From the NCBI RefSeq assembly GCF_900167605.1, contig NZ_FUYH01000015.1, forward strand, positions 27,472 to 51,471: a stretch of 24,000 nucleotides of DNA, written 5' to 3'. The first letter of the stretch is position 1. The number at the start of each line of letters is the position of its first letter. The notes under the pieces were generated by a model. That model ran no database searches and was not told the DNA's origin. It worked only from the letters and a program-made list of their open reading frames with translations. The DNA comes from Caloramator quimbayensis. Its GTDB lineage: Bacteria; Bacillota; Clostridia; Clostridiales; Caloramatoraceae. A program made the translations under genes and the position numbers. Below are positions 4,335 to 21,813 of this stretch, one piece after another.

Positions 4335-7300
4335 GTGTTTTTTAAATCAAAACTTTCTAAGAAAGTGACTTCGTTGTTTGTCGTAATGGTTATTGTTTTA
4401 AACTTTTTTAGTACAAGCATTCCTGCTTTAGCAGCACAGCCTCAGAGGATAGCAGCATGGGATTACACAGCAGCTCCAACAACTTATCCTGTTCCTGCCA
4501 CAGATGGAGAATATAAAGATGGGGCAGTTTTAAAGAATTTTAAGGATGCAATACCATCTTATAGTAAAGGAAGCTTATCTATTAATGGCTGGGACAATGG
4601 AGAGAATAGTAAGTACTGGCAGATTGAGTTTTCAACAAAAGGTTATGACAATTTAAGCTTATCTGCAAAGACTCGTTCATCATCAACAGGACCGAGGGAT
4701 TTTAAGCTTATTTACAGCATCGATGAAGGGAATACATGGCTTGATGTTCCAAACAGCACTTATGCAATAACAGGAACTGACCTTAGCAATTATATGCCTG
4801 AAATTAATTTGCCAAGCGATTTAGCAGATAAGGATAAAGTATATGTAAGATTTATAATGACAAGTAATACATCAAGTACTTCTACGACTACCACAGAAGT
4901 GCAATCAGGTGGTACAAGCAACATTAACAATATAATAATTACTGGCACTCCTGTATCTAATGCTCAGACAGTAGCAGGTATTACTGCAGTACCTGAAAGC
5001 GGCGCAGAAGTTGCATTAGGCTCAAAGGTTTCTCTTTACTGTGAAACTGAAGGTGCAACCATAATGTATTCGATTAATGACAGTGAATTTATCCCATATA
5101 ATCAAGAGGAACAAATAACTCTTAAAACATTACCAGCAACTATAAAGGCCTATGGAATTAAAGATGGATTAAATAACAGCGTTATATCTACGTTTAGCTA
5201 CATTCAAGGCAAAACAGCTGCAGTTACAGCAAATCCTAATGGGGGAGCTGTTCCTCTTAATAAAGAGGTTGCTCTTTCCTGTGAAACTCCAAATTCTACG
5301 ATTAAATATTCCCTTGATGATGGTACAACGTGGAATGATTATTCAGCACCCATAGTTTTAAATAATCTTCCTGCAACAATAAAGGCCTATGCAACAGCAG
5401 AAGGACTGCTTGACAGCCCCGTAACGACTTTCACCTTTACTGAAAAAGTTAGTGAAGAATATAATATATACTTTGGCCAACTTCACTCCCATACAACTAA
5501 TTCTGATGGTTTAGGAACACTTGATGATGCCTACAGTTATGCAAAGGGAACTGCAAAGCTCGACTTTTTCGCAGTAACTGACCATTCAAATTCCTTTGAC
5601 AATGCTTCAACTTCAAGTATGGCTGATGGTTCAAAGAGTACAAAATGGCTGAATGGAAGAGCAGCAGCGGATAAATATACAGACAGCAGCTTTGTTGGAA
5701 TATACGGCTTTGAAATGACTTGGTCAAACGGTACAGGACATATGAATACTTTTAATACTCCTGGATTTGAAACCCGTGATACTGCAAAGTATAAGCTTTT
5801 AGATGGACTAAAGCAGTATTATGATGTATTAAAACAATTTCCTGATTCAATATCACAGATGAACCATCCAGGACCTACCTTTGGAGATTTTAATGATTTT
5901 GCATATTATGACCCTCAAATAGATAAGCTGATTACTTTAATTGAAGTAGGTAATGGAGAAGGAGCGATTGGAAGCAGCGGGTATTTCCCATCTTATGAAT
6001 ATTATCAGAGGGCTCTTGATAAGGGGTGGCACCTTGCACCAACAAATAATCAGGACAACCATCTTGGAAACTGGGGAACAGCAAATACAGGAAGAACCGT
6101 TATTTTAGCTGACAGTTTAACAAGGGACAATGTTTATGATGCTATGAGAAATATGAGGGTTTATGCCACTGAGGATAGTAACTTAAGAATTAAATATACT
6201 TTAAATGGAGAAGTAATGGGAAGCATATTAGAGAATAAACCCTTTAGTGTAAACATAAAGGTTGATATTGAAGATGCTGATAATGAAGCTCTTGGGAAAA
6301 TTTCAGTAATTGCAAACGGCGGGAAGGTAGTTGATTCAAAAACAGTTTCAACTAATAAGGATTTAATAGAATTTAATCTTTCTGCTAATTATTCATATTA
6401 CTATATAAGAGTAGATGAGGCTGATAAGGATATTGCAGTTACAGCACCAGTTTGGATAGGTGAAGTTGATAAGGCTGGTATTTCAAAGACAACACCAAGC
6501 ACAACACTTCCAATAAAGGGTGAGAGCTTTAAAATAACTACAAATTATTTTAACAATGAAAACTATCCTATGGAAATAACAAGCTTAGTTTATTCAATAA
6601 ATGGTGAGGTAATAAATTCTGCATCTGAATTAACTTTTGTGCCTTCTTTAGGAACAGGCTCATACTCCTTTGATTATGTTGCGCCTTCTGCAGGGAAATA
6701 CAATATAGATGTAAGAATGACAGCAAAAATTAATGGCGTTGAAAAAATTTATACAGATGTTTTAAAGATAGAAGTTGTTGACCCTGCAATAACGACTAAA
6801 GTTGTTGTAGATGCAACACATTTTAATGATTATGTTTATGGATATTATGCAAATAATTTAAATAACTTTACAACGATAGCAAACAGCCAAAAGATTGCTG
6901 TAAATATCGAGAAGAATAAGCTGACTGATGATGTTTTAAAGGATGCACAGCTATTGATTATAACGGCCCCAGCAAAAAAATCGGGAACTGTAAATGGTGT
7001 TCCATATCAGCCCCAAAGCTTTAGCGAAGAGGATATTGCTGTGGTTAAAAGATTTGTAGACAAGGGAGGAAACCTTATAATATGCGGAATTGCTGACTAT
7101 CAGGACGGCACAGGAGAATATCAGACATCAACTCAGATGAATAGACTTTTAGAAGGAATAGGGGCAACAACAAGATTTAACAACGATGAGGTTGTTGATG
7201 ATGTTAATAAATTAAACAATCAAAACTTCAGACTTGCCTTTAGGAACTATAATTTTAATTCGCCTTATTTAAGTGGCGTTCTTCCAGAACAAAACTATAG

Positions 7301-8522
7301 TTTTTATAGCGGATGTTCTTTAAATATCGATGAAAATGCCCTTAATACAGGTAAAGTTACATGGCTTGTAAAAGGCTATGATACAACAAGATCAATAGAT
7401 TCTAATAAAAACCTTACAGGGGTATCACTTCCTGAGGGAAGCGTTTATGCCCTTGCAGTAGAAGAGATTCCTAACGGAGGAAAGATGTTTATTGGAGGAA
7501 CGGTATTTATTTCAGACTTTGAAGTGAAGGTTCAGCTTGATAATTCAACGCAGCTTCAAAACAGTAACTATAATATAACTATGAATATTCTAAACTCAAT
7601 TAAGAAAGTAATACCGGTATCTCAAATTTCGACTGTTCGTGCAGGACAAAAGGGAGATGTTTTCTGTGTAGAAGGAACAGTAACAGCAGGAAAGACACCT
7701 TCAGATAATGCTTTCTTTGATACTTTATATGTTCAGGACGAAACTGGAGGTATAAACCTTTTCCCAATTTCAGATACTAACATAATGGTTGGGCAAAGAG
7801 TAAAAGCAATAGGAACATTAGATGAGTATCAAGGAGATTTGGAACTTAGAGTTATCGAATATTCAGTAACAGATACTTCTATAAATCCTGTAGAACCTAC
7901 TTTATTGTCAACAAAGGATTCTATGGACAGCAAATATGGAGGACTTTTGGTAAAAGTAATTGGAAATGTAACGAGGATGGACAGCCAGAATATTTATGTT
8001 GATGATGGAAGCGGAGAAGCACGAATATTCGTCGATGGATATATAGGTGATGGAAGTGGCGATTCATCTAAAGCAGGAAAGTGGGATGAAAGAATTAATG
8101 TTGGAAGCAAGATAAGCGCTATTGGATTAGCCTCAGTTGATCCGAATGGTCCAAGACTTAGGGTTAGAAATACATCTGAAATTGTTCTTATAGAGGAGCC
8201 TGTACAAAAGGATAATTTTGAAATAGTAACTGTTGAAGCACCAGAAAAGATAATAAAGGGGCAGGATGCAAAGATAAGCATAAAAGGAATAAATAACACA
8301 AATACTGAACAAAATGTAGCGCTGATTGTTGCATTATTTGATGAAAATGACAAGATGATTCTTTATGGAGCATCTCAGCAAAAGATTAAAGCTAATGACA
8401 ATGCTGTATTAACTGTTATGATGAGAATACCCAATTCTTCAGAGAATTTAAAGATTAAATATTTTATCTGGGATTCTTTAGACGGCATGAATCCATTATC
8501 AAAAGTATATGAGATAAAATAA
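4335..8522 (+). CDS. Secreted 1395-aa multidomain PHP-family (CehA/McbA-like) metal-dependent phosphoesterase, possibly an extracellular nuclease/phosphatase
   Basis: GTG start follows GGGGGGAG. Signal peptide present (KK, hydrophobic core, ALAA/QPQ). Two tandem Ig-like repeats of about 80 aa sharing LPATIKAY (about nt 4950-5450) resemble chitobiase/hexosaminidase C-terminal-type domains. PHP motifs: LHSHTTNSDG (HSH at nt 5484-5492), AVTDHS, GFEMTW, GHMN, MNHPGP, NNQDNH. Near the C-terminus is an OB-fold-like segment of the kind seen in extracellular nucleases (VFCVEGTVTAG...LYVQDETGGINLF...GDLELRV, about nt 7620-8190). No LPXTG, SLH or cell-wall-binding repeats were seen. Confidence 0.85.
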   Translation: MFFKSKLSKKVTSLFVVMVIVLNFFSTSIPALAAQPQRIAAWDYTAAPTTYPVPATDGEYKDGAVLKNFKDAIPSYSKGSLSINGWDNGENSKYWQIEFSTKGYDNLSLSAKTRSSSTGPRDFKLIYSIDEGNTWLDVPNSTYAITGTDLSNYMPEINLPSDLADKDKVYVRFIMTSNTSSTSTTTTEVQSGGTSNINNIIITGTPVSNAQTVAGITAVPESGAEVALGSKVSLYCETEGATIMYSINDSEFIPYNQEEQITLKTLPATIKAYGIKDGLNNSVISTFSYIQGKTAAVTANPNGGAVPLNKEVALSCETPNSTIKYSLDDGTTWNDYSAPIVLNNLPATIKAYATAEGLLDSPVTTFTFTEKVSEEYNIYFGQLHSHTTNSDGLGTLDDAYSYAKGTAKLDFFAVTDHSNSFDNASTSSMADGSKSTKWLNGRAAADKYTDSSFVGIYGFEMTWSNGTGHMNTFNTPGFETRDTAKYKLLDGLKQYYDVLKQFPDSISQMNHPGPTFGDFNDFAYYDPQIDKLITLIEVGNGEGAIGSSGYFPSYEYYQRALDKGWHLAPTNNQDNHLGNWGTANTGRTVILADSLTRDNVYDAMRNMRVYATEDSNLRIKYTLNGEVMGSILENKPFSVNIKVDIEDADNEALGKISVIANGGKVVDSKTVSTNKDLIEFNLSANYSYYYIRVDEADKDIAVTAPVWIGEVDKAGISKTTPSTTLPIKGESFKITTNYFNNENYPMEITSLVYSINGEVINSASELTFVPSLGTGSYSFDYVAPSAGKYNIDVRMTAKINGVEKIYTDVLKIEVVDPAITTKVVVDATHFNDYVYGYYANNLNNFTTIANSQKIAVNIEKNKLTDDVLKDAQLLIITAPAKKSGTVNGVPYQPQSFSEEDIAVVKRFVDKGGNLIICGIADYQDGTGEYQTSTQMNRLLEGIGATTRFNNDEVVDDVNKLNNQNFRLAFRNYNFNSPYLSGVLPEQNYSFYSGCSLNIDENALNTGKVTWLVKGYDTTRSIDSNKNLTGVSLPEGSVYALAVEEIPNGGKMFIGGTVFISDFEVKVQLDNSTQLQNSNYNITMNILNSIKKVIPVSQISTVRAGQKGDVFCVEGTVTAGKTPSDNAFFDTLYVQDETGGINLFPISDTNIMVGQRVKAIGTLDEYQGDLELRVIEYSVTDTSINPVEPTLLSTKDSMDSKYGGLLVKVIGNVTRMDSQNIYVDDGSGEARIFVDGYIGDGSGDSSKAGKWDERINVGSKISAIGLASVDPNGPRLRVRNTSEIVLIEEPVQKDNFEIVTVEAPEKIIKGQDAKISIKGINNTNTEQNVALIVALFDENDKMILYGASQQKIKANDNAVLTVMMRIPNSSENLKIKYFIWDSLDGMNPLSKVYEIK

Positions 8523-8706: not shown

Positions 8707-9507
8707 ATGATTAAACTTATTGCAACAGATCTTGACGGTACTCTTTTAAATGATAAAGGTGAAATAGATAAAAAACTAAAAAGCCTTTTAAATGTTTTAA
8801 AATCAAAAAATATTAAATTCGTTCCAACCAGCGGCAGGCTCTACAGCACTCTTTGCAGGAATTTTAAAGATTATGGTTCTGATTTAATAATAGTTGCAAT
8901 TAACGGAGCTGTAGTTCAATATAACAATAACGGAAAAGTGATTTATGAAAATCCTATTGATAGAGAAATATGCTTTGAAAGCGTAAAAGCTTTGATTGAT
9001 TTAAATATGGATTTTGAAATATATATAACTTGTAAGAATATGAACTATCTCTTAAGGGAGAATAAAGAGCTTATTCATAAATTTGCAATTTCGGATGCGG
9101 ATATGTCTTTTATAGAAAACTATTATGAAATCAATGAGGATATATTTAAAATTGGAATATTTAAAACTTCAGGCTTTACAAAAGAAGAAGTTGATAGAAT
9201 TAAAATTGCAACAGGCAATAGATTTGAATATGAAGTATCAGGGAATGTATGGCTTGATATAACAAACAAAGATGTTAACAAAGGAAATGCAATAAAAATT
9301 CTTCAAAACATATTCGATATTAAAAAAGAAGAAACCTTAGTTTTTGGAGATTATTATAACGACATTTCAATGTTTAAAAGAGCGTATTACAGCTATGCGA
9401 TGGGAAATGCACCCCACGATGTTAAAGCAAAGGCAAGATTTGTAGCTCTTGATAATAATAACAATGGTGTTATTAAAGTTATAGAAAAGGTTGCAGGAGA
9501 AGATTAA
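8707..9507 (+). CDS. Cof-type HAD-IIB family hydrolase (sugar-phosphate phosphatase-like)
   Basis: N-terminal motif I LIATDLDGTLL, TSGR motif II, and C-terminal GDYYNDISMF (motif IV, GDxxND) typical of Cof/YidA-type HAD phosphatases. Confidence 0.9.
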   Translation: MIKLIATDLDGTLLNDKGEIDKKLKSLLNVLKSKNIKFVPTSGRLYSTLCRNFKDYGSDLIIVAINGAVVQYNNNGKVIYENPIDREICFESVKALIDLNMDFEIYITCKNMNYLLRENKELIHKFAISDADMSFIENYYEINEDIFKIGIFKTSGFTKEEVDRIKIATGNRFEYEVSGNVWLDITNKDVNKGNAIKILQNIFDIKKEETLVFGDYYNDISMFKRAYYSYAMGNAPHDVKAKARFVALDNNNNGVIKVIEKVAGED

Positions 9508-9532: not shown

Positions 9533-9561
9533 TTGACTATTCTCAAATATTGCTATATTAT
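9533..9561 (+). promoter_or_regulatory. Candidate sigma-A promoter of the pepV-PTS cluster
   Basis: TTGACT (9533-9538), 17-nt spacer, TATTAT (9556-9561). Alternatively a TG-extended TATATT (9554-9559) with 15-nt spacing. It lies between the HAD stop codon and the large hairpin. Confidence 0.4.
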
Positions 9562-9569
9562 TAACTCAG

Positions 9570-9650
9570 GCATAAGAATGACCCCCAATATGATTTTTTA
9601 TGTTCTATTGATAATCTATCATATTGGTCATCTTATGCTTTTTTATTTTT
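9570..9650 (+). terminator. Large intrinsic-terminator-like hairpin: HAD gene terminator and/or leader attenuator of pepV
   Basis: About 21 bp of pairing: GCATAAGA (9570-9577) / TCTTATGC (9631-9638), TGA/TCA, a CCC bulge, then CCAATATGAT (9585-9594) / ATCATATTGG (9618-9627). Loop is 23 nt, followed by T6-A-T5 (9639-9650). It ends 9 nt before the pepV Shine-Dalgarno. Confidence 0.6.
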
Positions 9651-9673
9651 AAATAAAGAAAGGAGATTAAATC

Positions 9674-11053
9674 ATGATTGATTTTTATAAAGAAGTATTA
9701 AAAAGAGGGGATGAATATATTAAATATCTTGGTGAATGGATAGAGATTCCCTCTATTTATGATGAAGACACAGCAAATAAATATATGCCCTTTGGCAAAG
9801 AAATCGGTAGAAGTTTAAAATGGTTTGAAAACTTAGCTTTAAAGGATGGATTTAGAGTTAAAAATGATGATGGATATGCTGTTCATGCAGAATATGGGCA
9901 GGGCAATGATTATGTGTGTGCATTTGGACATGCTGATGTAGTTCCAGTAGATGATAACTGGAGGACAGATCCTTTTAAACTTACTGTTAACGATGGGAAA
10001 GCATATGGCAGAGGAGTGGTCGATGATAAAGGGCCGATACTTGGATGTTATATGGGGCTTAAAATAATAAAAGAATTGAATCTTCCTGTAAAAAATTCTA
10101 TTAGGATTATAGTTGGAGGAAATGAAGAAAACGGATTTAGATGTATTAGACATTACTTTTCTAAAGAGCCTCAGCCTAAATTTGGATTTACTCCTGATGC
10201 TAAGTTCCCTGTTATTCATGGAGAGAAGGGAGTAGCGATTTTAGAAGTTAGCGGAACTATTAAAGAGAGAATAGAAATAAAAGCAGGAACAGCTAATAAT
10301 ATAATACCCTCAACGATACAAATAAAGCTTAATACAAATTATGCTTATCTAAAAGAGAAATTTATGAGTTATTTATATGAAAATAATTTAAATGGAGATT
10401 TTAAGGTAAATAATTATTATATTTCAATAAAGGTTCAAGGAGTAGGGGGACACTCATCAAAGCCTGAAAAAACTGTTAACCCAATAACAAAACTTGTGAG
10501 CTTTCTAAGTACAAATATCAATACTCCATTGTTTTGGGATTTAGGCAAGATTTTATTTGATAATGATTACAAAGGGGTGGGATTTGGTATTTATACATCA
10601 GGTAAATGTGGAGAACTCACTATTGTCCCAACTATGTTTAATATAAATACGGACAAGATAAGTTTGATATTTAGCATAAGATATCCAGAAAATGCTGATT
10701 TGAATTCTATTAAAGATAAAATTACTAAATATATTTGTAAAAATTTAAAGGGAGAATATGAGATTAAACTAAAAAATATAAAAAATCCATGTTATATTGA
10801 GCCAGACTTTATATTAGTAAAAAAACTTCATGAAATATATATAAATCATTCTGAAGATTTAAAAAGCAAAGTAAGAGTTACAAGTGCAGGCACTTATGCA
10901 AGTGAAATGAAAAACTCTGTAGCCTTTGGCGCAGAATTTGGGGATGGCAGCTCTGGAAATGTGCATTCTGCTAATGAATATATGGAAGTTAAAAGACTTT
11001 TTCAGTCTGCTGCAATTTATGCACATGCACTTTATGAAATGGTCAATATGTAG
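9674..11053 (+). CDS. pepV: M20-family dipeptidase, PepV/Sapep-like
   Basis: ATG follows AAGGAG. Motifs FGHADVVPV, WRTDPF, GRGVVDDKGP and GGNEENG are characteristic of PepV/Sapep M20A dipeptidases. Length is 459 aa. Confidence 0.88.
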   Translation: MIDFYKEVLKRGDEYIKYLGEWIEIPSIYDEDTANKYMPFGKEIGRSLKWFENLALKDGFRVKNDDGYAVHAEYGQGNDYVCAFGHADVVPVDDNWRTDPFKLTVNDGKAYGRGVVDDKGPILGCYMGLKIIKELNLPVKNSIRIIVGGNEENGFRCIRHYFSKEPQPKFGFTPDAKFPVIHGEKGVAILEVSGTIKERIEIKAGTANNIIPSTIQIKLNTNYAYLKEKFMSYLYENNLNGDFKVNNYYISIKVQGVGGHSSKPEKTVNPITKLVSFLSTNINTPLFWDLGKILFDNDYKGVGFGIYTSGKCGELTIVPTMFNINTDKISLIFSIRYPENADLNSIKDKITKYICKNLKGEYEIKLKNIKNPCYIEPDFILVKKLHEIYINHSEDLKSKVRVTSAGTYASEMKNSVAFGAEFGDGSSGNVHSANEYMEVKRLFQSAAIYAHALYEMVNM

Positions 11054-11121
11054 ATGATGTCACTTAGTATGACATTGTTTATAATCAATTTTCAGAAAAT
11101 AAATATTATACTATATATAGG

Positions 11122-13041
11122 ATGGTGAGTGAGGTGTTAACAAAAAAGCATTATCTAATAATAAAATACCTCAGCGATAAGGATGCCTGTCTAACTTCGG
11201 CAGAGATGGCGCAAAAGATAGGAATGTCAACAAGAACAGTAAAAAGATATATAAATGATATTAACTATGAACTTAAAAAAATGGGGGTTGAAATTATAGC
11301 CTTAAAGGGTATAGGTTACAAGCTGACCGGTACACCTAAAGTTTTACAGGGGGTTTTAAAAGAGGCATTAAGAGTAATTGATGGATTTGAAATCGATGAT
11401 TCAATTGAGGGCAGAGTAGAAAATGCAATAAATCTTTTAATTAATAATGATACTTTAAATGCTGATGAGATGGCAGAAAAACTTAATTTAAGTACTTCAA
11501 GTTTTAATAAAATGACTTCTAAAATAAAAGAGTGTATAAAAAAATATAATCTTACAATTGCCTCAAAGCCTCATTATGGAACTTATATTGATGGAGAGGA
11601 GTTAAATATTAGAGCTCTTATACTCGATTATTGTATAAAAGCAGACAATAATAATAACCTTAAGGTTTATCTCTCTAATGTAAATAAAGAAGACATTGAA
11701 ACTATAGAAAAAATAATATCCATTTATCTTAAGGAAAACAATATAGTTGTTGCTGACAAAGACTTTAATAATTTGTTGTCGAGGATTATTGTATCTTTAT
11801 CGAGGATGAGAAAGAATAAAACTGTTGAAAATTTATCACTTATTAATAATTACAGGCATCACAATTACTCAGCCATTCACAGTATTATGAGTCAAGTTGA
11901 AAAGGCTTTGGATGTAGCGTTTAGTGAAACTGAATATTATTATGTTTCTTTTTACTCAGGCTTTATGATATATAATTACAGCATGAGAAATCTTCAGGAT
12001 ACTGATTTGCTAGATGAAGAAATATTCAGCTTTGTAAAAGCCCTCCTTGAAGAGATAAAAATAATAACTGGCAATGAATTTGATCAGGATACAAAACTTA
12101 TAAAAGCGATGACAATACATATTAAAATAGCAATTAACAGAGCAAGGGCAGGAGCTCAGGTTAAAAATCCTCTGCTGCAGCAGATAAAATCTAATTATCC
12201 AGTTGAGATGAATTTTGCAATGTTTGCAGCAAAGAAAATATATGATTATTACGGCATAGAGCTTGATGAAGATGAAGTAGGATTTATAGCGATGCACTTT
12301 GGAGCTGCTCAGGAAAGAATTAAAACAAACATGACAAAAAAGATATGCATAGTATGTCAATATGGAATCGGTACTGCGCAGCTTCTATCTGAAAAAATAA
12401 AAAACCATATTAAATATGTAGAAGTAATAGGGGTGTATCCAGCAAGATATTTAGATGTTGCATTAAAACAAAACGTTGATTATATAGTTTCAACAGTTGA
12501 GATTGAAGATTACAAATCAAACATACCTATTATCAGCGTTGATAACGTTCTATCAGATTCTTCTATTAAAAAAATTGGAGACATCATAACGTTGGACATT
12601 AGCAAAAAGAAACTTTTGTTTGAAATGTTTAACAGAAAAGCCTTTTATAGATTAAAAGCTTCAACCAAAGAAGAAGTTATTAATTTAATGGGAAGTATGA
12701 TGGAGAAGGAAGGTTTAATTGATTCTAATGTTGTTAAATCAATATTAGAGAGGGAAAATATGTCATCTACTGATATTGGCAATTTAGTTGCTATTCCACA
12801 TACTGCAATAAACGGGGTTCACAAATCGGTAATTGGAGTTGCAATTCTTGATAAACCAATTCTATGGGATGTGGACGAGGTTCAAATAATTTTTATGATA
12901 TGTTTTAATCTTGCAGATAGGAAGAACCTTCACATATTTAAAAATATATACAGTTTAATAGACGATATTGACTTTATTAAATCCATGATTAAATCAAAGG
13001 ATTTTGATGAATTCATTCAGCTTTTAAGTGAAGGGAGATAG
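11122..13041 (+). CDS. PRD-domain transcriptional regulator of the MtlR/LicR/ManR class (HTH, PRD, PRD, EIIB-like, EIIA-like)
   Basis: N-terminal winged HTH (LTSAEMAQKIGMSTRTVKRYINDI). The central region has PRD character. EIIB(Gat)-like Cys segment KKICIVCQYGIGTAQLL (about nt 12331-12380). C-terminal EIIA(Mtl/Fru)-like His motif NLVAIPHTA (about nt 12781-12807). The start codon is uncertain; in-frame GTGs at 11125 and 11134 are alternatives. Confidence 0.85.
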   Translation: MVSEVLTKKHYLIIKYLSDKDACLTSAEMAQKIGMSTRTVKRYINDINYELKKMGVEIIALKGIGYKLTGTPKVLQGVLKEALRVIDGFEIDDSIEGRVENAINLLINNDTLNADEMAEKLNLSTSSFNKMTSKIKECIKKYNLTIASKPHYGTYIDGEELNIRALILDYCIKADNNNNLKVYLSNVNKEDIETIEKIISIYLKENNIVVADKDFNNLLSRIIVSLSRMRKNKTVENLSLINNYRHHNYSAIHSIMSQVEKALDVAFSETEYYYVSFYSGFMIYNYSMRNLQDTDLLDEEIFSFVKALLEEIKIITGNEFDQDTKLIKAMTIHIKIAINRARAGAQVKNPLLQQIKSNYPVEMNFAMFAAKKIYDYYGIELDEDEVGFIAMHFGAAQERIKTNMTKKICIVCQYGIGTAQLLSEKIKNHIKYVEVIGVYPARYLDVALKQNVDYIVSTVEIEDYKSNIPIISVDNVLSDSSIKKIGDIITLDISKKKLLFEMFNRKAFYRLKASTKEEVINLMGSMMEKEGLIDSNVVKSILERENMSSTDIGNLVAIPHTAINGVHKSVIGVAILDKPILWDVDEVQIIFMICFNLADRKNLHIFKNIYSLIDDIDFIKSMIKSKDFDEFIQLLSEGR

Positions 13042-13043
13042 TT

Positions 13044-13517
13044 ATGATAAATTCTGATTTAATATTTAAAATCGATAATATCAGATTGGATGCTGATATA
13101 AAAGATAAGCTTGAAGCTTTAAAGTATGTTTCAAAAGTTGCAAAAGAGGTTAAGCTTACTGATGATGAAGAAGAAACTTTAAAAGGACTTTTACAAAGAG
13201 AAAACGAATTTTCTACAGGCCTTGGGGATAGAATAGCAATACCCCATGCGAAATGGGAAAGCATAAAGCAAGCAGGAGTAATCATAATCAAACCAAAGAT
13301 TCCTATAGAATGGAATGCATTAGATGGACAACCAGTTTCAATAATAATAGCATTATTAACTCCTTATGATAACAGCGGTAATGTTCATCTTAAACTTCTT
13401 GCCAGCCTTTCAAGAAGTCTAATTGATGAGAGCTTTAAGAAAAAAATAATAGAAACAAATGAAAAAGAGGAAATTTTTGATTTGGTTAAAGAAGCTTTAA
13501 CAGCTTTTAATAATTAA
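13044..13517 (+). CDS. PTS EIIA component, fructose/mannitol (EIIA-2) family
   Basis: Starts 2 nt after the regulator stop, with a GGGAGA Shine-Dalgarno. Phosphorylatable His motif GLGDRIAIPHAK. Length is 157 aa. Confidence 0.9.
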   Translation: MINSDLIFKIDNIRLDADIKDKLEALKYVSKVAKEVKLTDDEEETLKGLLQRENEFSTGLGDRIAIPHAKWESIKQAGVIIIKPKIPIEWNALDGQPVSIIIALLTPYDNSGNVHLKLLASLSRSLIDESFKKKIIETNEKEEIFDLVKEALTAFNN

Positions 13518-13534
13518 TAAATGGAGGTGTTAAG

Positions 13535-13849
13535 ATGAGTAAAAAATTAGTAGCATTATGTGCATGCCCCATGGGGTTAGCTCATACTTTCATGGCTGCG
13601 CAGTCATTAGAAAAGGCAGCAAAGGAGCTTGGCTATGAAGTAAAGGTTGAAACTCAGGGGGCAGATGGAATCCAAAACGAATTGACTTTAAAGGACATAA
13701 AGGAGGCAGATATTATTATCCATGCAGTAGCTGTAACTCCCCTTGATCCTGACAGATTTGAAGGGTATGACGTTCATGAAATTACACTTCAGCAGGCAAT
13801 TAAAAATGCAAAGAGCATAATTCAGGAAATAGAAGAGAGCATAAAATAA
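13535..13849 (+). CDS. PTS EIIB component, fructose family
   Basis: GGAGGTG Shine-Dalgarno. Active-site Cys motif ALCACPMGLAHTFMAA followed by VKVETQGADG, as in fructose-type EIIB. Length is 104 aa. Confidence 0.9.
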   Translation: MSKKLVALCACPMGLAHTFMAAQSLEKAAKELGYEVKVETQGADGIQNELTLKDIKEADIIIHAVAVTPLDPDRFEGYDVHEITLQQAIKNAKSIIQEIEESIK

Positions 13850-13852
13850 AAA

Positions 13853-13886
13853 AGTACCCTCCGCAAAAAAATTATTGGAAGGTACT
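13853..13886 (+). other. Intra-cluster hairpin between EIIB and EIIC
   Basis: AGTACCCTCC (13853-13862) / GGAAGGTACT (13877-13886), 10 bp with one C-A mismatch and a 14-nt loop. An A-run lies upstream and there is no T-run downstream, so the U-tract would be on the - strand. Confidence 0.4.
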
Positions 13887-13965
13887 AAAATAAATAACCA
13901 CATTAAGTATAATAACTTATTTTTAAATAATTAACAATATTTAAATAAAAAAAGGGGGAAATTAT

Positions 13966-15150
13966 ATGGAGAAGCAGACATCAAAAGGTTCAAAGGCTTG
14001 GAAAGAATTTAATAAGCATGTAATGACTGGCATTTCATATATGATTCCAGTACTTATCATGGGAGGACTTATAGGGGCATTTTCTCAGATGATACCTTAT
14101 GTATTTTTAAAGATTGATCCATCTACTTCTATTGTAGATGCGGTTAATTCAGGGAATTTTTCAGGGGCAAGCCTTGCCTTCTTAAAGCTTTCACATATAA
14201 TGGAAAGTTTTGGATTTACGCTGTTCAGCTTTGCTATACCAATGTTTGCAGCTTTTACAGCAAACTCTATTGGAGGAAAGACTGCACTTGCGGCAGGATT
14301 TATAGGAGGTTATGTTGCTAATAAGCCAATTGCTCTTCTTTCATTAACTGAAGGGAAATGGGCTCCAAAGGCTCCAGTTGCATCAGGGTTCCTTGGAGCA
14401 ATACTTATAGCTTTTATGGTTGGTTATTTTGTAAAATGGCTGAATAAAAAGATACAGCTTCCACACAACTGGCTTGCATTTAAGGCAACATTTTTAATTC
14501 CTCTTCTTGCAGCATTATTTACAATGGTAGCAATGGTATTTGTTGTAACTCCATTTGGAGGATGGGTAAATACATTAATAAAATCAGGACTTCAGGCGGC
14601 GGGTAAGGCTGGACAAATAGTTTATTCGATAGTTCTTGCAGCAGCAACAGCCTTTGACCTCGGAGGACCAGTTAATAAAGCAGCTGGATTTGTGGCCCTT
14701 GGATTTACTACTGAAAAGATTCTTCCAATAACAGCAAGATGTATTGCGATAGTTACTCCATCCTTTGGACTTGGTTTATCAACTTTAATAGACAGAAAGC
14801 TTGTGAGAAGAAGAGTTTATGATAAACAATTTTATGAAGCAGGAAAAACAGCAATATTCCTTGCATTCATGGGTATTTCTGAAGGTTCTATACCTTTTGC
14901 CCTTGAAAGACCAGCCTTTGTAATTCCTTTATATGTAGTAGGTTCAGTATTTGGTGCCCTCGTAGCAGTTGTTCTTGGAGCAGTTCAGTGGTTCCCAGAA
15001 TCTGCAATATGGGCTTGGCCATTGGTATCTAAGCTTGGAATATATATACTTGGTTTAATAGTAGGTGCTGTATTTATTGCAGTTATAAACGTATTATACA
15101 GAAATAAACTTATAAATGAAGGAAAACTTGTTGTTGATGGAGATGAATAA
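13966..15150 (+). CDS. PTS EIIC permease, fructose family
   Basis: GGGGGA Shine-Dalgarno. 394-aa polytopic membrane protein with fructose-type EIIC hallmarks (FDLGGPVNKAA, MGISEGSIPFA). Confidence 0.9.
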   Translation: MEKQTSKGSKAWKEFNKHVMTGISYMIPVLIMGGLIGAFSQMIPYVFLKIDPSTSIVDAVNSGNFSGASLAFLKLSHIMESFGFTLFSFAIPMFAAFTANSIGGKTALAAGFIGGYVANKPIALLSLTEGKWAPKAPVASGFLGAILIAFMVGYFVKWLNKKIQLPHNWLAFKATFLIPLLAALFTMVAMVFVVTPFGGWVNTLIKSGLQAAGKAGQIVYSIVLAAATAFDLGGPVNKAAGFVALGFTTEKILPITARCIAIVTPSFGLGLSTLIDRKLVRRRVYDKQFYEAGKTAIFLAFMGISEGSIPFALERPAFVIPLYVVGSVFGALVAVVLGAVQWFPESAIWAWPLVSKLGIYILGLIVGAVFIAVINVLYRNKLINEGKLVVDGDE

Positions 15151-15157
15151 TATAGTG

Positions 15158-15190
15158 TTAATGCAGGATTGAATATCAATCCTGCATTAA
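15158..15190 (+). other. Perfect 14-bp stem-loop between EIIC and the M24 peptidase gene
   Basis: TTAATGCAGGATTG (15158-15171), loop AATAT, CAATCCTGCATTAA (15177-15190). It is followed by TATTAATAAGG, so there is no clean U-tract. Confidence 0.6.
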
Positions 15191-15212
15191 TATTAATAAG
15201 GAAGGTAATATT

Positions 15213-16283
15213 ATGAAAAGATTAAATAAAATAAGGGAAATAATGAAAGAAAATTTTTTAGATGCGTTTTTAATAAATTCTCCCTATAATAAATTCTATT
15301 TGGCAAATCTATATAGCAACTCAGGATATCTTCTTATAACAAGAAACAATCAATATGCTCTCGTAGATTCGCGATATTATGTTCAGGTAAAAGAAAATGC
15401 AAAGGAATTTAATGTTATCGAAATTTCAAAGGAAAGAACGATTTTTGATTTCTTAAATGAGGTTATTAAAAAAGAGAGTATAAAGAAAATAGGAATTGAA
15501 GGAGATAATCTTACTTATGATAATTATATGAAGTTGGCTGAGAATGTTAAAGTAGTATTTTTAAGCATTTCTTTAGATAGCCTAAGAGCGATAAAAACTT
15601 CGGAAGAAATTGAAAAAATTAGAACAGCTGCTCAGATAGCTGATAAAGCGTATAAACACATACTGTCTTTTGTAAAAGAAGGAATGACTGAAAAGCAGGT
15701 TGAAAGAGAACTTGTAAGATATATTAAAGAATGCAATGGAGATAAGGAATCTTTTGACATAATTGTAGCTTCAGGAGAAAGGGGTGCTCTTCCCCATGGA
15801 AAAGCATCGGAGAAAATTATAAAAAGAGGAGAATTTGTAACTATTGATTTTGGCGTAAATTATAATAACTATTGTTCGGATATGACTCGAACCTTTTTGC
15901 TTGGAGAAGCTTATAATAAAGAAATGATAAAAATTTATGAGATTGTAAAAAAAGCTCAGTGGGAAGCTGTAAAGAGCGTTAAAGAAGGTATAACTGCTTC
16001 GTATCTTGATAGTATAGCAAGGAATATTATCGAAAAAGAAGGATACGGAAAGAATTTTGGCCATAATCTTGGCCATGGAGTAGGCATTTTGGTTCATGAA
16101 TATCCTATAATTGGAAAGGGAAATGACATATTTTTGGAGGCAGGAATGATTATTACCATCGAACCTGGAATTTACATAGAGGGGCTTGGAGGAGTTAGAA
16201 TAGAAGATGATGTACTTGTAACTGAGGAAGGTTTTGAAGTTTTAACTAACAGCGATAGAGAACTTATTTCTGTAAAGGGGTGA
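15213..16283 (+). CDS. M24B-family Xaa-Pro aminopeptidase/dipeptidase (PepP/PepQ/YpdF-like)
   Basis: AAGGAAGG Shine-Dalgarno. Pita-bread metal-ligand motifs VTIDFG, CSDMTRT, GHNLGHGVGILVHEYP, ITIEPGIY and GGVRIEDDVLVT. Length is 356 aa. Confidence 0.9.
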   Translation: MKRLNKIREIMKENFLDAFLINSPYNKFYLANLYSNSGYLLITRNNQYALVDSRYYVQVKENAKEFNVIEISKERTIFDFLNEVIKKESIKKIGIEGDNLTYDNYMKLAENVKVVFLSISLDSLRAIKTSEEIEKIRTAAQIADKAYKHILSFVKEGMTEKQVERELVRYIKECNGDKESFDIIVASGERGALPHGKASEKIIKRGEFVTIDFGVNYNNYCSDMTRTFLLGEAYNKEMIKIYEIVKKAQWEAVKSVKEGITASYLDSIARNIIEKEGYGKNFGHNLGHGVGILVHEYPIIGKGNDIFLEAGMIITIEPGIYIEGLGGVRIEDDVLVTEEGFEVLTNSDRELISVKG

Positions 16284-16287
16284 TGTT

Positions 16288-17484
16288 ATGTATGATTTTG
16301 ATATAAAAACAGATAGAATAAATGAGAGATGTAGAAAATGGGACAAAAAAATAATAAAAGAACATTTTGAAGATGTATCAGATGACTTTATTCCTTTGTG
16401 GATTGCGGATATGGATTTTAAAGCCCCTGACAATATACTAAATTCTTTTAAAAGAGCAATCGACATAGGAGTGTTTGGATATACTTATGTTTACGATGAA
16501 TTTTATGATGCAGTAATAAGCTGGCAGAAGGATATGCATGGAGTAGATATTTATAAAGACTGGATAACTTTAAGCTATGGAACGGTATCTACTCTGCATT
16601 ATATTGTTCAGGCATTTTGCAATGAAAATGATTCTATATTAATGAATACTCCTGTATATGAACCCTTTAATGGTGCAGCAATAAAACAGGGAGTAAGATG
16701 TATTTATAATAAATTAAATATTATTAATAACAGATATTACATAGATTTTGAAGAAATAGAATCTCAGCTTAGAGAATTTAAACCAAAGTTATATTTGCTT
16801 TGCTCACCTCACAATCCTTCAGGGAGGATATGGAGCATCGATGAATTAAGAAAAATTGCAATGCTTTGCAAACAATATAAAACTATTCTTGTTGTCGATG
16901 AAGTACATGGAGAGCAGATACATTTTGGAAGATTTTATTCTATTCTTTCCTTGGAAGAGGAATTAACGGATAATATAATATTGCTCTCTTCCCCAAATAA
17001 GGCTTTTAATTTGGGAGGGCTTAAAACTTCATATTCAATTATTCCAAATAAAAATATAAGAGAAAGGTTTAGAGAAAGGCTTTCTAAAAATTCGATAACT
17101 TCACCAAACGTATTTGGAATAATAGGAATAATATCAGCCTATAATGATTGCAAAGACTATCTTAAGGAAGTTACAAAATATATTTATGATAATTATATAT
17201 ACGCTGCAGATTTTATTGATAATAAAATTTCTAAACTCTCCTATATGAAAATGGAGTCTTCATATCTTTTATGGGTAAACATTAGTAAAACAGGAATTAC
17301 ATCTACTGAATTTACTAAATTTTTATCATCAGAATATGGTGTTTTGGTTGAGGACGGGAATAATTTTGTTTGTGATGGTGAAGGCTGGATAAGAATTAAC
17401 CTTGGAACCCAAAGAGAAAATATTAAAAAGGCTATGGAAAGGATAGAAAAATGTGTTCAAAATTTAGATAAGATTTTTTCATAA
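16288..17484 (+). CDS. MalY/PatB-family PLP-dependent C-S beta-lyase (cystathionine beta-lyase-type aminotransferase fold)
   Basis: Starts 4 nt after the M24 gene stop. Motifs DRINERCRKWD, IPLWIADMDFKAP, CSPHNPSGRIW and SSPNKAFNLGGLK (PLP lysine) are typical of MalY/PatB. Confidence 0.9.
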   Translation: MYDFDIKTDRINERCRKWDKKIIKEHFEDVSDDFIPLWIADMDFKAPDNILNSFKRAIDIGVFGYTYVYDEFYDAVISWQKDMHGVDIYKDWITLSYGTVSTLHYIVQAFCNENDSILMNTPVYEPFNGAAIKQGVRCIYNKLNIINNRYYIDFEEIESQLREFKPKLYLLCSPHNPSGRIWSIDELRKIAMLCKQYKTILVVDEVHGEQIHFGRFYSILSLEEELTDNIILLSSPNKAFNLGGLKTSYSIIPNKNIRERFRERLSKNSITSPNVFGIIGIISAYNDCKDYLKEVTKYIYDNYIYAADFIDNKISKLSYMKMESSYLLWVNISKTGITSTEFTKFLSSEYGVLVEDGNNFVCDGEGWIRINLGTQRENIKKAMERIEKCVQNLDKIFS

Positions 17485-17497
17485 ATTAAATTTTGAT

Positions 17498-17521
17498 GGC
17501 CGGATAATTCCGTCCTTTTTT
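17498..17521 (+). terminator. Rho-independent terminator ending the PTS-peptidase-lyase cluster
   Basis: GGCCGGA (17498-17504), loop TAAT, TCCGTCC (17509-17515), 7 bp with one mismatch, then T6 (17516-17521). Confidence 0.55.
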
Positions 17522-17623: not shown

Positions 17624-19129
17624 ATGGGAAAAACTAAAGTATTCAAAAAGACAATTGTTTCAACAATAATTTTTACTTTTCTACTTGTTATTATAATAAT
17701 GAGCAGCGGATATATATTTTTAGGAAATTTAAAGGAAAAGGCAAAAGAACGTTATGATAATCTAATGAGGATTAATATAACTATAGGCAGCTCCTCATTA
17801 GAGCTTAATAACAGCTTTAACTATTTTGATAAATATATAAAAACAAGGGATAAGGATTATCTTAATAAATACAATATGTCAATTGAAAAGGTTAAGAATA
17901 ATGTAAATTCTATAGAAACTAATCCCAATATAAATACTGAGTGTGGAATTTATATTAGGAACATAAAAAATATGCTTGAATGGTATGACGAGCAGATAAA
18001 ACTGCTGACTAAAAAAGATATACTCGAAAAATCTGATTACAACAAAATAATGGAAGTAAAGAGCATGTACATTCATATAAATAACCATCTTCAAAAAACA
18101 GCAGTTTCGTTTTTGTTTTACAGCAACAATACATATAACGAAATACTTGTAAATAACAAAAAAGTAGAGCAGCAGATACAAAAGATTATTTTTTTAATTA
18201 TAATCATTTCTATTATGATAGTTATTGCAGTCAGCTTAAATATAAAAAACACTATGTGGCAAATACTAAAAAATATTGAAAGGCTTTCAAATGCAGATTG
18301 GGAAATTGAGGACATGAAGGAGCAAAAGTATGAAGAATTAAATATATTAGCAGAGGCCTTTAACAAAATGAAGCATAGCATAAAAAAATATATAAATGAA
18401 ATAAATGAGAAAGCTGAAATTGAAAACAAATATAACCAAGAAAAAATCAAAAATATTGAAAAAGATAAAATTTTAAGAGATACTCAATTAAGAGCTTTAA
18501 AAACGCAGATTAATCCACACTTCCTATTTAATGCATTAAATACAGTATCAAGATCTGCCCTTTTTGAACCAAGTGAAAATACGGTTAAACTAATTGAAGC
18601 TATATCAAAGATATTAAGATATAACCTAAACAGTATTGATGATTTTGCTGAATTAAAGGAAGAGATAAATATTTTAAAAGCATATGCACTGATTCAGGAA
18701 ACGAGATTTAAAGACAGAATGAGTTTTAGCTTTGAAATCGAAAAGGATGCTGAAAATATAAAAATACCAAGAATGATTTTGCAGCCTTTAGTAGAAAACG
18801 CTATTTCCCATGGAATTGATGAAAAAGAAGAAGGAGGGGATATATTTGTACATGCCCAAAAAGATAATGAATGCATAAAAATAACGATATCTGATAATGG
18901 GATGGGAATGAATGAAGACACTATACAGAAAATACTAAAAAAACAGTTTAAGGGTATTTCAAAAAAATCTTCAGGATTAGGAATATCCAATATTTTAGAG
19001 CGTTTAGAACTATATTATAGAGATAGATTTTCTTTTAAAATAGAATCTAAACTAAACAAAGGTACAAAAATATCTATAAATCTGCCTATTGCTCGAGGTG
19101 ATTATTTTGCTGAAAATTATGATAGCTGA
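17624..19129 (+). CDS. Sensor histidine kinase, YesM/LytS-type (His_kinase PF06580-like plus HATPase)
   Basis: Two TM segments flank an extracytoplasmic domain of about 150 aa. A HAMP-like linker follows, then the H-box INPHFLFNALNTV, the N-box QPLVENAISHG, and the G-boxes DNGMGM and GLGISN. Confidence 0.9.
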   Translation: MGKTKVFKKTIVSTIIFTFLLVIIIMSSGYIFLGNLKEKAKERYDNLMRINITIGSSSLELNNSFNYFDKYIKTRDKDYLNKYNMSIEKVKNNVNSIETNPNINTECGIYIRNIKNMLEWYDEQIKLLTKKDILEKSDYNKIMEVKSMYIHINNHLQKTAVSFLFYSNNTYNEILVNNKKVEQQIQKIIFLIIIISIMIVIAVSLNIKNTMWQILKNIERLSNADWEIEDMKEQKYEELNILAEAFNKMKHSIKKYINEINEKAEIENKYNQEKIKNIEKDKILRDTQLRALKTQINPHFLFNALNTVSRSALFEPSENTVKLIEAISKILRYNLNSIDDFAELKEEINILKAYALIQETRFKDRMSFSFEIEKDAENIKIPRMILQPLVENAISHGIDEKEEGGDIFVHAQKDNECIKITISDNGMGMNEDTIQKILKKQFKGISKKSSGLGISNILERLELYYRDRFSFKIESKLNKGTKISINLPIARGDYFAENYDS

Positions 19130-20627
19130 AGATGAGATTCTTGAAAGAAAAGCATTAAGATATTTATTAGAAAAATACTATAAAAACAATCTTGAAATTG
19201 TGGCAGAAGCTTCAAATGGAAGGGAAGCTGCTGATTTTGCAATTGAATTAAAGCCGGATATAATTTTGATGGACATTAAAATGCCTGTACTTGATGGACT
19301 TGAAGCAGGTAAGATAATAAAAAGCGAATTGCCTGAAACAGAGATTGTAATACTTACGGCTTTTAATTATTTTGAATATGCAAAGGAATCTATAAAAATT
19401 GGAGTTGCAGATTATTTATTAAAGCCATATTCTAATGAAGAATTTGCCAATATAATAGATTCTTTGCTTAACAAATTTTATATTAAAAAACTTCTTAAAA
19501 ATAAAAATGAGCAGATGGAAAAGAAATATACTGAACTATTATCCCTTGCGGAAAATGAAATAATTTTAAATTTAATTTATTCTCATAAGCCTGAGAGAGT
19601 GCAGATTGAAGAGTACAAAAAAATATTAAATATACACAGTAATAAATATTGCTGTCTTATATGTTTACTAAAGGATGATTTAAAGGATGAAAATGTTGAA
19701 ATTATAAAAGATGAATTAAAATGTTTTTTTACTGAAGTTATTGGAGGAGTTAATAAAAAGGAAGCAGTTTTTTTAATATTCGATGATAACATAGGTAAAA
19801 AGCTTAATAAAACCATTTTAAAAAAAGTGTTTGATAAGAAAGATATTATTTTGTCCTTTGGAGTTGGAATTATTGAAGATGATTTGAAAAATTTTTATTT
19901 ATCATATAAAAAAGCAAAAAAAGATTTATATGAAAATCAAGCTTTAAATGAAGAAGAGGAAAATATATTTGAAAAAAATAATAATGCATATTATAAGCTG
20001 CTTAGAAGCTTTATTGATAATGATATTAACCAATTCAATATAATTTTTGAGGAATTGATTCTATTGAGATTTAATTCTAAGGATTGCTATGAAATAAATC
20101 AATATAAAATTTTTATTTCAGAAATTTATGAATATCTGATAACTAATATACCAAATTATTTTAAAAAGAATATAAATAAAGACGAAATTTTAATTTTTAA
20201 TGAAGAAATAAATAAAATAAATAAAATTGAAGATGTTACACTTTTACTTAAAGAAAAGATAAAAAACCTTATGATTTTATTTAAGCGTATTAAAGAAGGC
20301 GAAAGTTTAGGTGTAATTGAAAAAGCTAAAAACTATATTGAAGAAAATTATATGAAAGATATTACTCTTGAGAAGGTAGCTAATTATGTTTCAATGAGCA
20401 GTTTTCATTTCAGCAGGATTTTTTATGACGCTGAGGGAATAAATTTTAAGGATTATTTAATTAAGATAAGGATGGAAAAAGCAATAAATATGCTTTTAAA
20501 GGAAAAGAAAACTATAAAAGAAATAGCACAGGAGGTTGGGTACCCAGATCAAAATTATTTCAGCAGGGCATTTAAGAAATATACGAATTCATCTCCAACA
20601 GAATATTTTAAGAAGATAATTAATTAA
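19107..20627 (+). CDS. Response regulator with AraC-type HTH output (YesN-like)
   Basis: REC domain (KIMIAEDE, ILMDIKMPVLDG, LLKP) and a C-terminal AraC HTH (VSMSSFHFSRIF, GYPDQNYFSRAFKKYTNSSPTEY). I prefer TTG 19107 (GAGGTGA at 19095-19101) as the start. The track start at 19089 and ATG 19119 remain possible. It overlaps the 3' end of the kinase gene. Confidence 0.85.
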   Translation: MLKIMIAEDEILERKALRYLLEKYYKNNLEIVAEASNGREAADFAIELKPDIILMDIKMPVLDGLEAGKIIKSELPETEIVILTAFNYFEYAKESIKIGVADYLLKPYSNEEFANIIDSLLNKFYIKKLLKNKNEQMEKKYTELLSLAENEIILNLIYSHKPERVQIEEYKKILNIHSNKYCCLICLLKDDLKDENVEIIKDELKCFFTEVIGGVNKKEAVFLIFDDNIGKKLNKTILKKVFDKKDIILSFGVGIIEDDLKNFYLSYKKAKKDLYENQALNEEEENIFEKNNNAYYKLLRSFIDNDINQFNIIFEELILLRFNSKDCYEINQYKIFISEIYEYLITNIPNYFKKNINKDEILIFNEEINKINKIEDVTLLLKEKIKNLMILFKRIKEGESLGVIEKAKNYIEENYMKDITLEKVANYVSMSSFHFSRIFYDAEGINFKDYLIKIRMEKAINMLLKEKKTIKEIAQEVGYPDQNYFSRAFKKYTNSSPTEYFKKIIN

Positions 20628-20646
20628 AAGGCTTTTGAGCCTTTTT
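20626..20646 (+). terminator. Weak AT-rich terminator after the response regulator gene
   Basis: AAAAGGCT (20626-20633), loop TTTG, AGCCTTTT (20638-20645) plus T. A second AT-rich palindrome, TTTTTGCTAA (20649-20658) / TTAGCAAAAA (20669-20678), follows. Confidence 0.45.
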
Positions 20647-21783: not shown

Positions 21784-21813
21784 CAAGCCTTTTCTAAAGG
21801 AGGAGGTTATATA

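Follow-up and report, generated by a model that had tools for sequence, protein, structure and literature searches.

A Fry-type PTS operon of Caloramator quimbayensis and two alternative sets of enzyme genes behind permeases of its clade

We analysed a seven-gene operon on a 24-kb stretch of DNA from Caloramator quimbayensis (contig NZ_FUYH01000015.1; low-GC, ~30 %; the whole stretch is called the window below). The operon encodes a phosphotransferase system (PTS) of the fructose family together with two peptidases and a pyridoxal phosphate (PLP)-dependent lyase of the PatB family. Behind near-identical enzyme IIC (EIIC) permeases, related loci carry either a glycoside hydrolase of family 38 (GH38) or peptidase/lyase genes, a strict alternative that is new here. 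Tentatively, we favour a PTS of the alpha-mannoside kind that takes up conjugates of mannose with amino acids or peptides; the peptidases would trim the substrate and PatB would free mannose-6-phosphate.

All seven open reading frames (ORFs) are co-directional on the + strand and span 9674-17484, with intergenic gaps of 68, 2, 17, 116, 62 and 4 nt in order from pepV to patB. Coordinates and gaps match exactly those given in an earlier note on this DNA, and the families that it had proposed for all seven genes were upheld by Pfam and NCBIfam.

9674..11053, + strand: M20 dipeptidase, PepV/Sapep family (profile matches and closest structures)
11122..13041, + strand: PRD transcriptional activator, MtlR/LicR type (domain table)
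13044..13517, + strand: PTS EIIA, fructose/mannitol family (PF00359; TIGR00848)
13535..13849, + strand: PTS EIIB, FryB orthologue (TIGR00829; 78 % identity to E. coli FryB)
13966..15150, + strand: PTS EIIC permease, FryC orthologue (TIGR01427; 57 % identity to FryC)
15213..16283, + strand: M24B Xaa-Pro-type peptidase, YpdF-like (Creatinase_N and Peptidase_M24; 43 % identity to YpdF)
16288..17484, + strand: PLP-dependent PatB/MalY-family lyase (TIGR04350; closest structures are C-S beta-lyases)

Conserved operon and alternative enzyme genes

Gene neighbourhoods were compared in 78 loci from a scan of one genome per species and 80 loci from a metagenome scan, with neighbours classified by tblastn and ORF clustering. 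Two metagenome loci (L135 and L150) were ridden with frameshifts and gave no usable information. The full order PepV-Reg-IIA-IIB-IIC-M24-PatB was counted in 15 species-level genomes that range from Clostridia to Negativicutes and include C. difficile; the linkage that the earlier note had proposed for gene-neighbourhood comparison thus extends well beyond close relatives. These genomes include Anaerosolibacter, several Clostridium, Pelosinus, Lucifera, a Tissierellales genome, Romboutsia (Peptostreptococcaceae) and C. difficile, in which the counterpart is CD2484-CD2490, adjoining pmi (CD2491). Geosporobacter has the same order, with PepV not detected. EIIC and PatB themselves are 99 and 94 % identical, respectively, to proteins of Caloramator strain E03.

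Partial versions of the linkage were found in Enterobacterales, Fusobacteriota and Erysipelotrichia. The variants are LacI-PepV-IIB-IIC-M24 in Rahnella and other Enterobacterales, Reg-IIA-IIB-IIC-PatB in Streptobacillus, IIC-M24-M42-PatB in Solobacterium and Reg-IIA-IIB-IIC-M24-M42-PatB-PMI in Caproiciproducens, where PMI is mannose-6-phosphate isomerase. By its gene content, the Caproiciproducens operon bridges the Firmicute and E. coli forms. The gene arrangement is far beyond chance, as the same order recurs across several phyla.

A grouping of genes that share no function, for instance a separate pepV unit next to a housekeeping M24-patB pair, is therefore highly improbable. A terminator-like hairpin before pepV, the 68-nt gap with a promoter-like site after pepV and a strong hairpin between EIIC and M24 would fit such a division; gene order is nevertheless kept across phyla, and the M24 gene (CD2485) and PTS genes (CD2486-88) of C. 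difficile are co-regulated, being co-induced by glucose through CcpA in published work. The hairpin behind EIIC is also present where GH38 follows and is therefore a feature of the system rather than a boundary between unrelated genes.

Compared with E. coli K-12, EIIB is 78 % identical to FryB and EIIC 57 % identical to FryC, both over the full length, and the M24 peptidase is 43 % identical to YpdF. FryC itself is 52-57 % identical to the EIIC clade of the Caloramator protein vs 41 % to the next EIIC group. NCBIfam holds no FryC-specific equivalog, and FryC scores 138 on PRK10478. To judge by these identities, the Caloramator operon belongs to the Fry-type PTS as a Firmicute representative and is orthologous to fryBC-ypdFE. 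The parallel with E. coli fry/ypd drawn in the earlier note turned out stronger than claimed, with actual orthology and the same IIB-IIC-M24 order.

EIIC homologues 70-84 % identical to the Caloramator protein occur in Clostridia, Negativicutes, Tissierellales, Fusobacteriota and Enterobacterales, and the EIIC clade as a whole spans five phyla at 60-84 % identity. The 78 % identity of EIIB (13535-13849) to E. coli FryB (L079:10917-11243) likewise holds between a thermophilic relative of Clostridium and E. coli. Such high identity across phyla suggests either horizontal spread or unusually strong constraint on EIIB and EIIC.

The enzyme genes behind the permease were then compared in a close set of 108 loci, defined by at least 59 % identity to the Caloramator EIIC and no less than 1.5 kb of sequence beyond it downstream. 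GH38 followed EIIC in 70 of these loci and peptidase/lyase genes in the other 38; none had both and none had neither. Distant EIICs (30-44 % identity) were GH38-linked in 30 of 34 loci. These distant GH38-linked permeases come from Bacillaceae, Enterococcus and others, often with PMI upstream.

EIIC set; GH38; peptidase/lyase; both; neither
At least 59 %, genomes; 31; 31; 0; 0
At least 59 %, metagenomes; 39; 7; 0; 0
30-44 %, genomes and metagenomes; 30; 0; 0; 4

The GH38 partner has ~880 residues and all four GH38 domains. It matches E. coli MngB along its full length at 34 % identity, and mannosylglycerate hydrolase (933 bits) is its sole NCBIfam match. Both types are interleaved in the EIIC tree; within the Fusobacteriota, Leptotrichia (GH38) is sister to Streptobacillus (PatB). 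The permeases are hardly distinguishable: 109 of 394 alignment columns are invariant across types, and one column nearly separates them. This is residue 264, within the invariant TARCIAIV-x-PSFGLG motif, which is T in 29/30 GH38-linked and I/V in 30/33 peptidase/lyase-linked proteins. The Caloramator EIIC is one of the three peptidase/lyase-linked sequences with T264. Among candidate diagnostic residues only 264 came close, and it was rejected as such since the Caloramator EIIC breaks the rule.

Mannose-6-phosphate isomerase is a further partner in some peptidase/lyase-type loci. The linked PMI scores above the manA equivalog cutoff; it is divergent beside pepV in Peptostreptococcaceae (C. difficile, Romboutsia and related loci), and co-directional after patB, as the last operon gene, in Geosporobacter and Caproiciproducens. 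No kinase, isomerase, aldolase, deglycase or glycosidase was found by Pfam and NCBIfam in the Caloramator operon, and neither PMI nor GH38 was detected across the whole window. The absence of a sugar-phosphate enzyme reported in the earlier note thus holds for the window and fails in those relatives in which PMI adjoins or ends the operon.

Candidate substrate and chemistry

We judged membership of the enzyme II (EII) families by NCBIfam subfamily cutoffs, given here in bits as score vs cutoff. By their domain models all three components belong to the fructose/mannitol family: EIIA scored 114.7 vs 103.5 on TIGR00848, EIIB 94.1 vs 76.85 on TIGR00829 and EIIC 164.2 vs 157.55 on TIGR01427. The regulator has the domain order HTH_11 (12-67), Mga (103-170), two PRDs (best 307-396), PTS_IIB (407-485) and EIIA_2 (508-637). 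This is the composition of an MtlR/LicR/ManR-type PRD activator, with a helix-turn-helix (HTH) domain, an Mga-like HTH, two PRDs and EIIB(Gat)-like and EIIA(Mtl)-like domains. Its orthologues are 40-64 % identical in peptidase-type loci and 23-34 % identical in GH38-type loci.

Family membership leaves the sugar to be read from gene context, which argues for a mannoside over fructose. We read the EIIC family as probable alpha-mannoside permeases because MngB frees mannose-6-phosphate from a PTS-phosphorylated mannoside, as stated in a passage of PMC2815779 that cites Sampaio 2004. The fructose-family framing of the earlier note did not carry over to the sugar, which is most likely mannose: an MngB-like GH38 stands in half of the close loci from genomes and in all 30 GH38-linked distant loci. 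In the peptidase/lyase type the glycosidase is replaced by peptidases and a lyase at the same position after the hairpin, which makes a mannosyl-amino acid or mannosyl-peptide the most economical reading. A sugar-peptide or sugar-amino-acid conjugate, as proposed in the earlier note, fits the strict alternative in 108 loci best; the Amadori substrates considered there are a misfit to the swap with an alpha-mannosidase.

The mechanism that we propose would run as follows. EIIC with EIIA and EIIB would import alpha-mannose linked to an amino-acid side chain, in a free amino acid or a short peptide, and the mannose would be phosphorylated at O-6. O-mannosyl-Ser/Thr would be the simplest substrate and could stem, for instance, from the proteolysis of O-mannosylated proteins of fungi, actinobacteria or a host. 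Flanking residues would be stripped by the M24 aminopeptidase/prolidase (YpdF-like) and the dipeptidase of PepV type, with an M42 YpdE-type enzyme taking the role of PepV in other lineages. PatB would then break the sugar-amino-acid bond by alpha,beta-elimination, giving mannose-6-phosphate, pyruvate or 2-oxobutyrate, and ammonia; this step would stand in for the MngB-like GH38 mannosidase of the sister loci. Mannose-6-phosphate isomerase, linked in relatives and unlinked here, would pass the product to glycolysis, and the PRD activator would tie expression to substrate flux via the PTS.

Mannosyl-serine is near mannosylglycerate in size. O-mannosylated regions are rich in Ser/Thr/Pro and would suit an Xaa-Pro peptidase. 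Of all this, gene content, orthology to Fry, the conserved linkage, the strict alternative, the PMI linkage and the conserved PatB motif residues are observed, and we infer which substrate is taken up, that it is O-linked and that it is cleaved by elimination. The specific version, in which O-mannosyl amino acids or peptides are imported and a PatB-family 'glyco-amino-acid lyase' beta-eliminates 6-phosphomannose from Ser/Thr, is conceivable and somewhat doubtful as it stands.

PatB passed TIGR04350 barely (342.5 vs cutoff 340), and its nearest structures are cysteine-S-conjugate beta-lyases (3t32, 9k71 and S. hominis PatB 6qp3, the last at 259 bits). In an alignment of 24 PTS-linked homologues, residues K238, D204, N176, Y124, R369 and Y65 are among the near-invariant columns, which allow no more than one exception. 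From motifs and related enzymes, we take them to bind PLP and the alpha-carboxylate of the substrate, with K238 as the PLP lysine and R369 as the alpha-carboxylate ligand. As these motif residues are kept, we treat PatB as a presumably active enzyme on an alpha-amino acid.

That the residues expected for catalysis are kept also speaks against a PTS for a plain sugar, free mannose or fructose, with the peptidases and PatB co-located for another reason, such as nitrogen or amino-acid supply or a MalY-like regulation of the PRD regulator by PatB. E. coli MalY is indeed a regulator as well as a lyase. The fructose-type subfamily models passed by all three EII components would suit a plain sugar, as would PTS-PatB pairs that also occur with glucose-family EIICB in Hafnia and in C. 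difficile CD3027-30; the C. difficile papers, moreover, describe CD2486-88 as a glucose-induced fructose PTS. A permease for free hexose would not require an enzyme that cleaves a bond; all 108 of the close loci nevertheless have a glycosidase or peptidase/lyase genes immediately downstream, and the peptidase family varies (M20 or M42) at a fixed position, pointing to a metabolic need. We consider a plain-sugar PTS unlikely.

The two peptidases were placed in the same way. The M20 enzyme scored 381.2 vs a cutoff of 207.95 on the Sapep model TIGR01887 over its full length and narrowly missed the PepV equivalog NF005591 (409.2 vs 435); its closest solved structures are Sapep (3khx) and PepV (1lfw). 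Orthologues with 37-57 % identity hold the same position in 15 Firmicute loci and lie beside IIB in 11 Enterobacterales loci. The M24 enzyme matched the YpdF structure 5cnx at 304.6 bits, with a B. anthracis prolidase also among the nearest structures, and remained under the cutoff of the PRK09795 equivalog (344.5 vs 393).

Membership of the Sapep family, together with the C-S lyase model and the cysteine-S-conjugate beta-lyase structures matched by PatB, S. hominis PatB included, would fit an S-linked conjugate of Cys or Cys-Gly with a sugar, for example an S-glycosyl cysteinyl peptide or a sugar-cysteine adduct. PepV would then serve as a dipeptidase of the Cys-Gly type, and PatB would be a genuine C-S beta-lyase. 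C-S cleavage is the characterised chemistry of the PatB family throughout. The Cys-Gly-S-conjugate route suggested in the earlier note was not borne out at the family level, however: on the Cys-Gly-3M3SH dipeptidase model NF052477 the M20 enzyme scored 220.1 vs a cutoff of 1025. Elimination from an S-mannoside would give 1-thio-mannose-6-phosphate and leave the linked mannose-6-phosphate isomerase unexplained, and the GH38 enzymes that form the alternative partner act on O-glycosides. We know of no abundant natural S-mannosyl peptide. An S-linked substrate is thus decidedly unlikely.

There is a slim chance that the substrate is a glycated (Amadori/Heyns) peptide or amino acid, for instance a fructosyl or glucosyl/mannosyl-amine conjugate, which the peptidases would trim after import. 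The PTS does belong to the Fru family, and peptides of this kind would require peptidases. Salmonella, too, has a PTS for fructoselysine/glucoselysine. On the other side, no SIS-type deglycase or fructosamine kinase was present in any peptidase/lyase locus examined, N-alpha-glycated peptides resist aminopeptidases, and the swap partner, an alpha-mannosidase, has no role on ketoamines.

Several points weigh against the mannosyl-conjugate PTS that we favour. No member of the Fry-type system has been experimentally tied to a substrate, and we know of no precedent for elimination of an O-glycosyl leaving group by the PatB family, whose characterised members cleave C-S bonds. The Rahnella and E. 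coli clusters have peptidases and neither PatB nor GH38, which leaves the bond-breaking step there unaccounted for. PMI adjoins only three peptidase/lyase-type lineages and is not in the Caloramator window. The GH38-type loci may take another aglycone, such as mannosylglycerate or mannobiose, and the shared permease therefore argues for the sugar head-group only. In addition, locus sampling rested on two short peptide patterns and tblastn, and the EIIC tree is a neighbour-joining tree only.

If the mannosyl-conjugate reading is true, the operon would represent a PTS for glycopeptides coupled to PLP-dependent deglycosylation of amino acids, a new glycopeptide catabolic route. It would provide E. 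coli FryABC/YpdEF and C. difficile CD2484-CD2491, possibly also the PTS-MalY pairs, with a function, and would add a class of nutrients, from fungal, actinobacterial or host O-mannosylated proteins, for gut and soil anaerobes including C. difficile. The strict alternative and the PMI linkage turn the function of Fry/YpdEF into a question that can be tested cheaply with mannosyl-Ser/Thr and O-mannosyl peptides.

Hairpins, promoter-like sites and flanking genes

Four signals within and around the operon were considered.

9533..9561, + strand: promoter-like hexamers TTGACT-17-TATTAT (10/12 matches; weak evidence only)
9568..9650, + strand: long hairpin and U-run between the HAD gene and pepV (-28.6 kcal/mol, z -4.0)
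15153..15195, + strand: intercistronic hairpin, perfect 20-bp stem, without U-run (-26.2 kcal/mol, z -8.3)
17498..17521, + strand: weak terminator-like hairpin and U6 after patB (-7.7 kcal/mol, z -0.9)

The hairpin at 15153-15195, which had been overlooked in the earlier note, is a strong structure inside the operon. It abuts the EIIC stop codon, ahead of the YpdF-type M24 gene that starts 62 nt after EIIC, and none of 200 shuffled sequences folded as well. A strong hairpin directly after EIIC was found in nearly all Firmicute loci, irrespective of whether M24 or GH38 follows. It marks the boundary between transporter and enzyme modules, the point at which the enzyme module is swapped, and probably acts by partial termination or by stabilising the mRNA, thereby setting the ratio of permease to enzymes. 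The position of the stem-loop is conserved and its sequence is not (L001-L011, L012, L018-L024, L023, L030-L037, L054, L055); several of the stem-loops have GAGAACTGA...TCAGTTCTC in common, and U-runs follow some of them. Rahnella, Anaerococcus and Leptotrichia, with gaps of 0-14 nt, lack the stem-loop. The EIIC-M24 palindrome occurs nowhere else in the window and is not a dispersed repeat, and a search of the intergenic regions for repeats returned only the hairpins.

Before pepV, relatives whose upstream gene runs in the same direction carry a terminator, though not at a fixed distance; the hairpin is missing where the upstream gene is divergent. Because the hairpin accompanies only co-directional upstream genes, 9568-9650 is best read, most simply, as the terminator of the upstream HAD gene. 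A conserved attenuator or leader was ruled out by its absence or variable distance in relatives. The promoter/leader that the earlier note had placed at 9533-9650 did not hold up, since the leader behaves as an upstream terminator and hexamers of this kind are at background level (58 such sites in the region vs 49.8 +/- 7.4 in shuffles). The hairpin ends ~24 nt before the pepV ribosome-binding site, which leaves no room for a promoter after it, and within 9533-9673 promoter-like hexamers stand only upstream of this terminator-type hairpin. The regulator of the operon is a DNA-binding PRD activator and not an RNA antiterminator, which is at odds with the hairpin-first layout before pepV. Rfam, run on the window at gathering thresholds and on the leader in E-value mode, gave only a chance match to a small RNA (14 bits), and a scan of the window for CcpA cre sites gave no match.

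At the 3' end, the terminator noted earlier at 17498-17521 is present as a hairpin with U6; it is weak by its z score and was not picked up by the terminator scan. The earlier note had also tied the HAD phosphatase gene (8707-9507) to the operon as a possible source of dephosphorylation. We rejected it as part of the module: an upstream HAD phosphatase occurs only here, in the Tissierellales genome L010 (30 % identity) and in the metagenome counterpart L090, and in the window a terminator divides the HAD gene from pepV.

Further upstream, 4335-8522 encodes a 1395-residue protein with a CehA/McbA (PHP-type) metallohydrolase domain, chitobiase/hexosaminidase C-terminal domains and an OB-fold; tblastn found no homologue of it in the 78 genome loci. 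Downstream, 17624-23599 encodes a histidine kinase (PF06580), a response regulator fused to an AraC HTH and a TRAP transporter (DctP/Q/M). In E. coli, too, the neighbours of the fry operon include a two-component system (pyrS/pyrR, with the annotation sensor kinase/activator) and an AraC-type regulator, ypdC, both adjoining it. The proximity of a two-component system in both Caloramator and E. coli may be a coincidence; tblastn matches to the histidine kinase of the window came only from three distant Bacillaceae loci.

Comparison with known systems

The Fry PTS with YpdE/YpdF is a long-standing 'cryptic' PTS operon of E. coli, and the presence of peptidases in sugar-uptake operons is so far unexplained. 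The FryABC substrate was called unknown in 2017 (PMC5364489), the system was still 'fructose-like' in a 2023 review (PMC10305011), and the orthologous operon of C. difficile is routinely labelled a fructose PTS. Our literature searches on Fry, YpdE/F, FrvX/SgcX, the C. difficile locus tags and GH38-PTS found no assigned function or substrate. In an E. coli BL21 derivative, an in-frame fryA deletion gave a fitness gain in prolonged LB culture (PMC5364489), which, speculatively, is compatible with a Fry substrate in yeast extract or tryptone.

The E. coli operon fryB-fryC-ypdF-ypdE-fryA shares with the Caloramator operon the IIB-IIC-M24 order and a second aminopeptidase. It differs in having the M42 enzyme YpdE where Caloramator has the M20 enzyme PepV, and in having a fused EI-HPr-EIIA protein, FryA, instead of a stand-alone EIIA; neither an M42 gene nor an EI-HPr-EIIA fusion gene is present in the Caloramator operon. 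In turn, the E. coli operon lacks the PatB lyase and the PRD regulator, both of which are present in Caloramator.

In PTS-MalY/PatB pairs (E. coli malX-malY, C. difficile CD3027-CD3030 with malY, and Hafnia alvei EIICB-patB), a PatB/MalY lyase likewise accompanies a PTS permease, directly downstream of it. These pairs differ in having glucose-family EIICB permeases and no peptidases. In Hafnia alvei (L080/L081, 7415-10188), PatB is 54 % identical to the Caloramator protein and starts 14 nt after the glucose-family EIICB. PatB-type lyases are thus tied to at least two unrelated PTS families, and the pairing of PTS permease and C-S lyase pointed out in the earlier note is a recurrent one, seen in both Hafnia and C. 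difficile.

The thioalcohol pathway of skin Staphylococcus and Corynebacterium resembles the operon in combining an M20 dipeptidase and a PatB-family lyase, which there process an amino-acid conjugate one after the other. That pathway involves no sugar, and the model of its dipeptidase is, as described above, far from the score of the Caloramator enzyme. Its uptake is by a peptide transporter, not a PTS. The frl/gfr fructosamine and glucoselysine loci do catabolise sugar-amino-acid conjugates, gfr through a PTS. They use deglycases or kinases and a mannose-family PTS, and such enzymes were not found in the Caloramator operon.

The closest counterpart of the sister loci is the mannoside PTS MngA/MngB, which like them consists of a Fru-family PTS followed directly by an enzyme that frees mannose-6-phosphate. 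MngA is only ~28 % identical to the Caloramator EIIC, which scored 115 vs a cutoff of 763 on PRK09765 and is thus not placed with the MngA orthologues. The MngA/MngB system has an adjacent GH38, whereas the Caloramator window has none. Its aglycone is glycerate, and in the system that we propose for Caloramator this place would be taken by an amino acid or a peptide.

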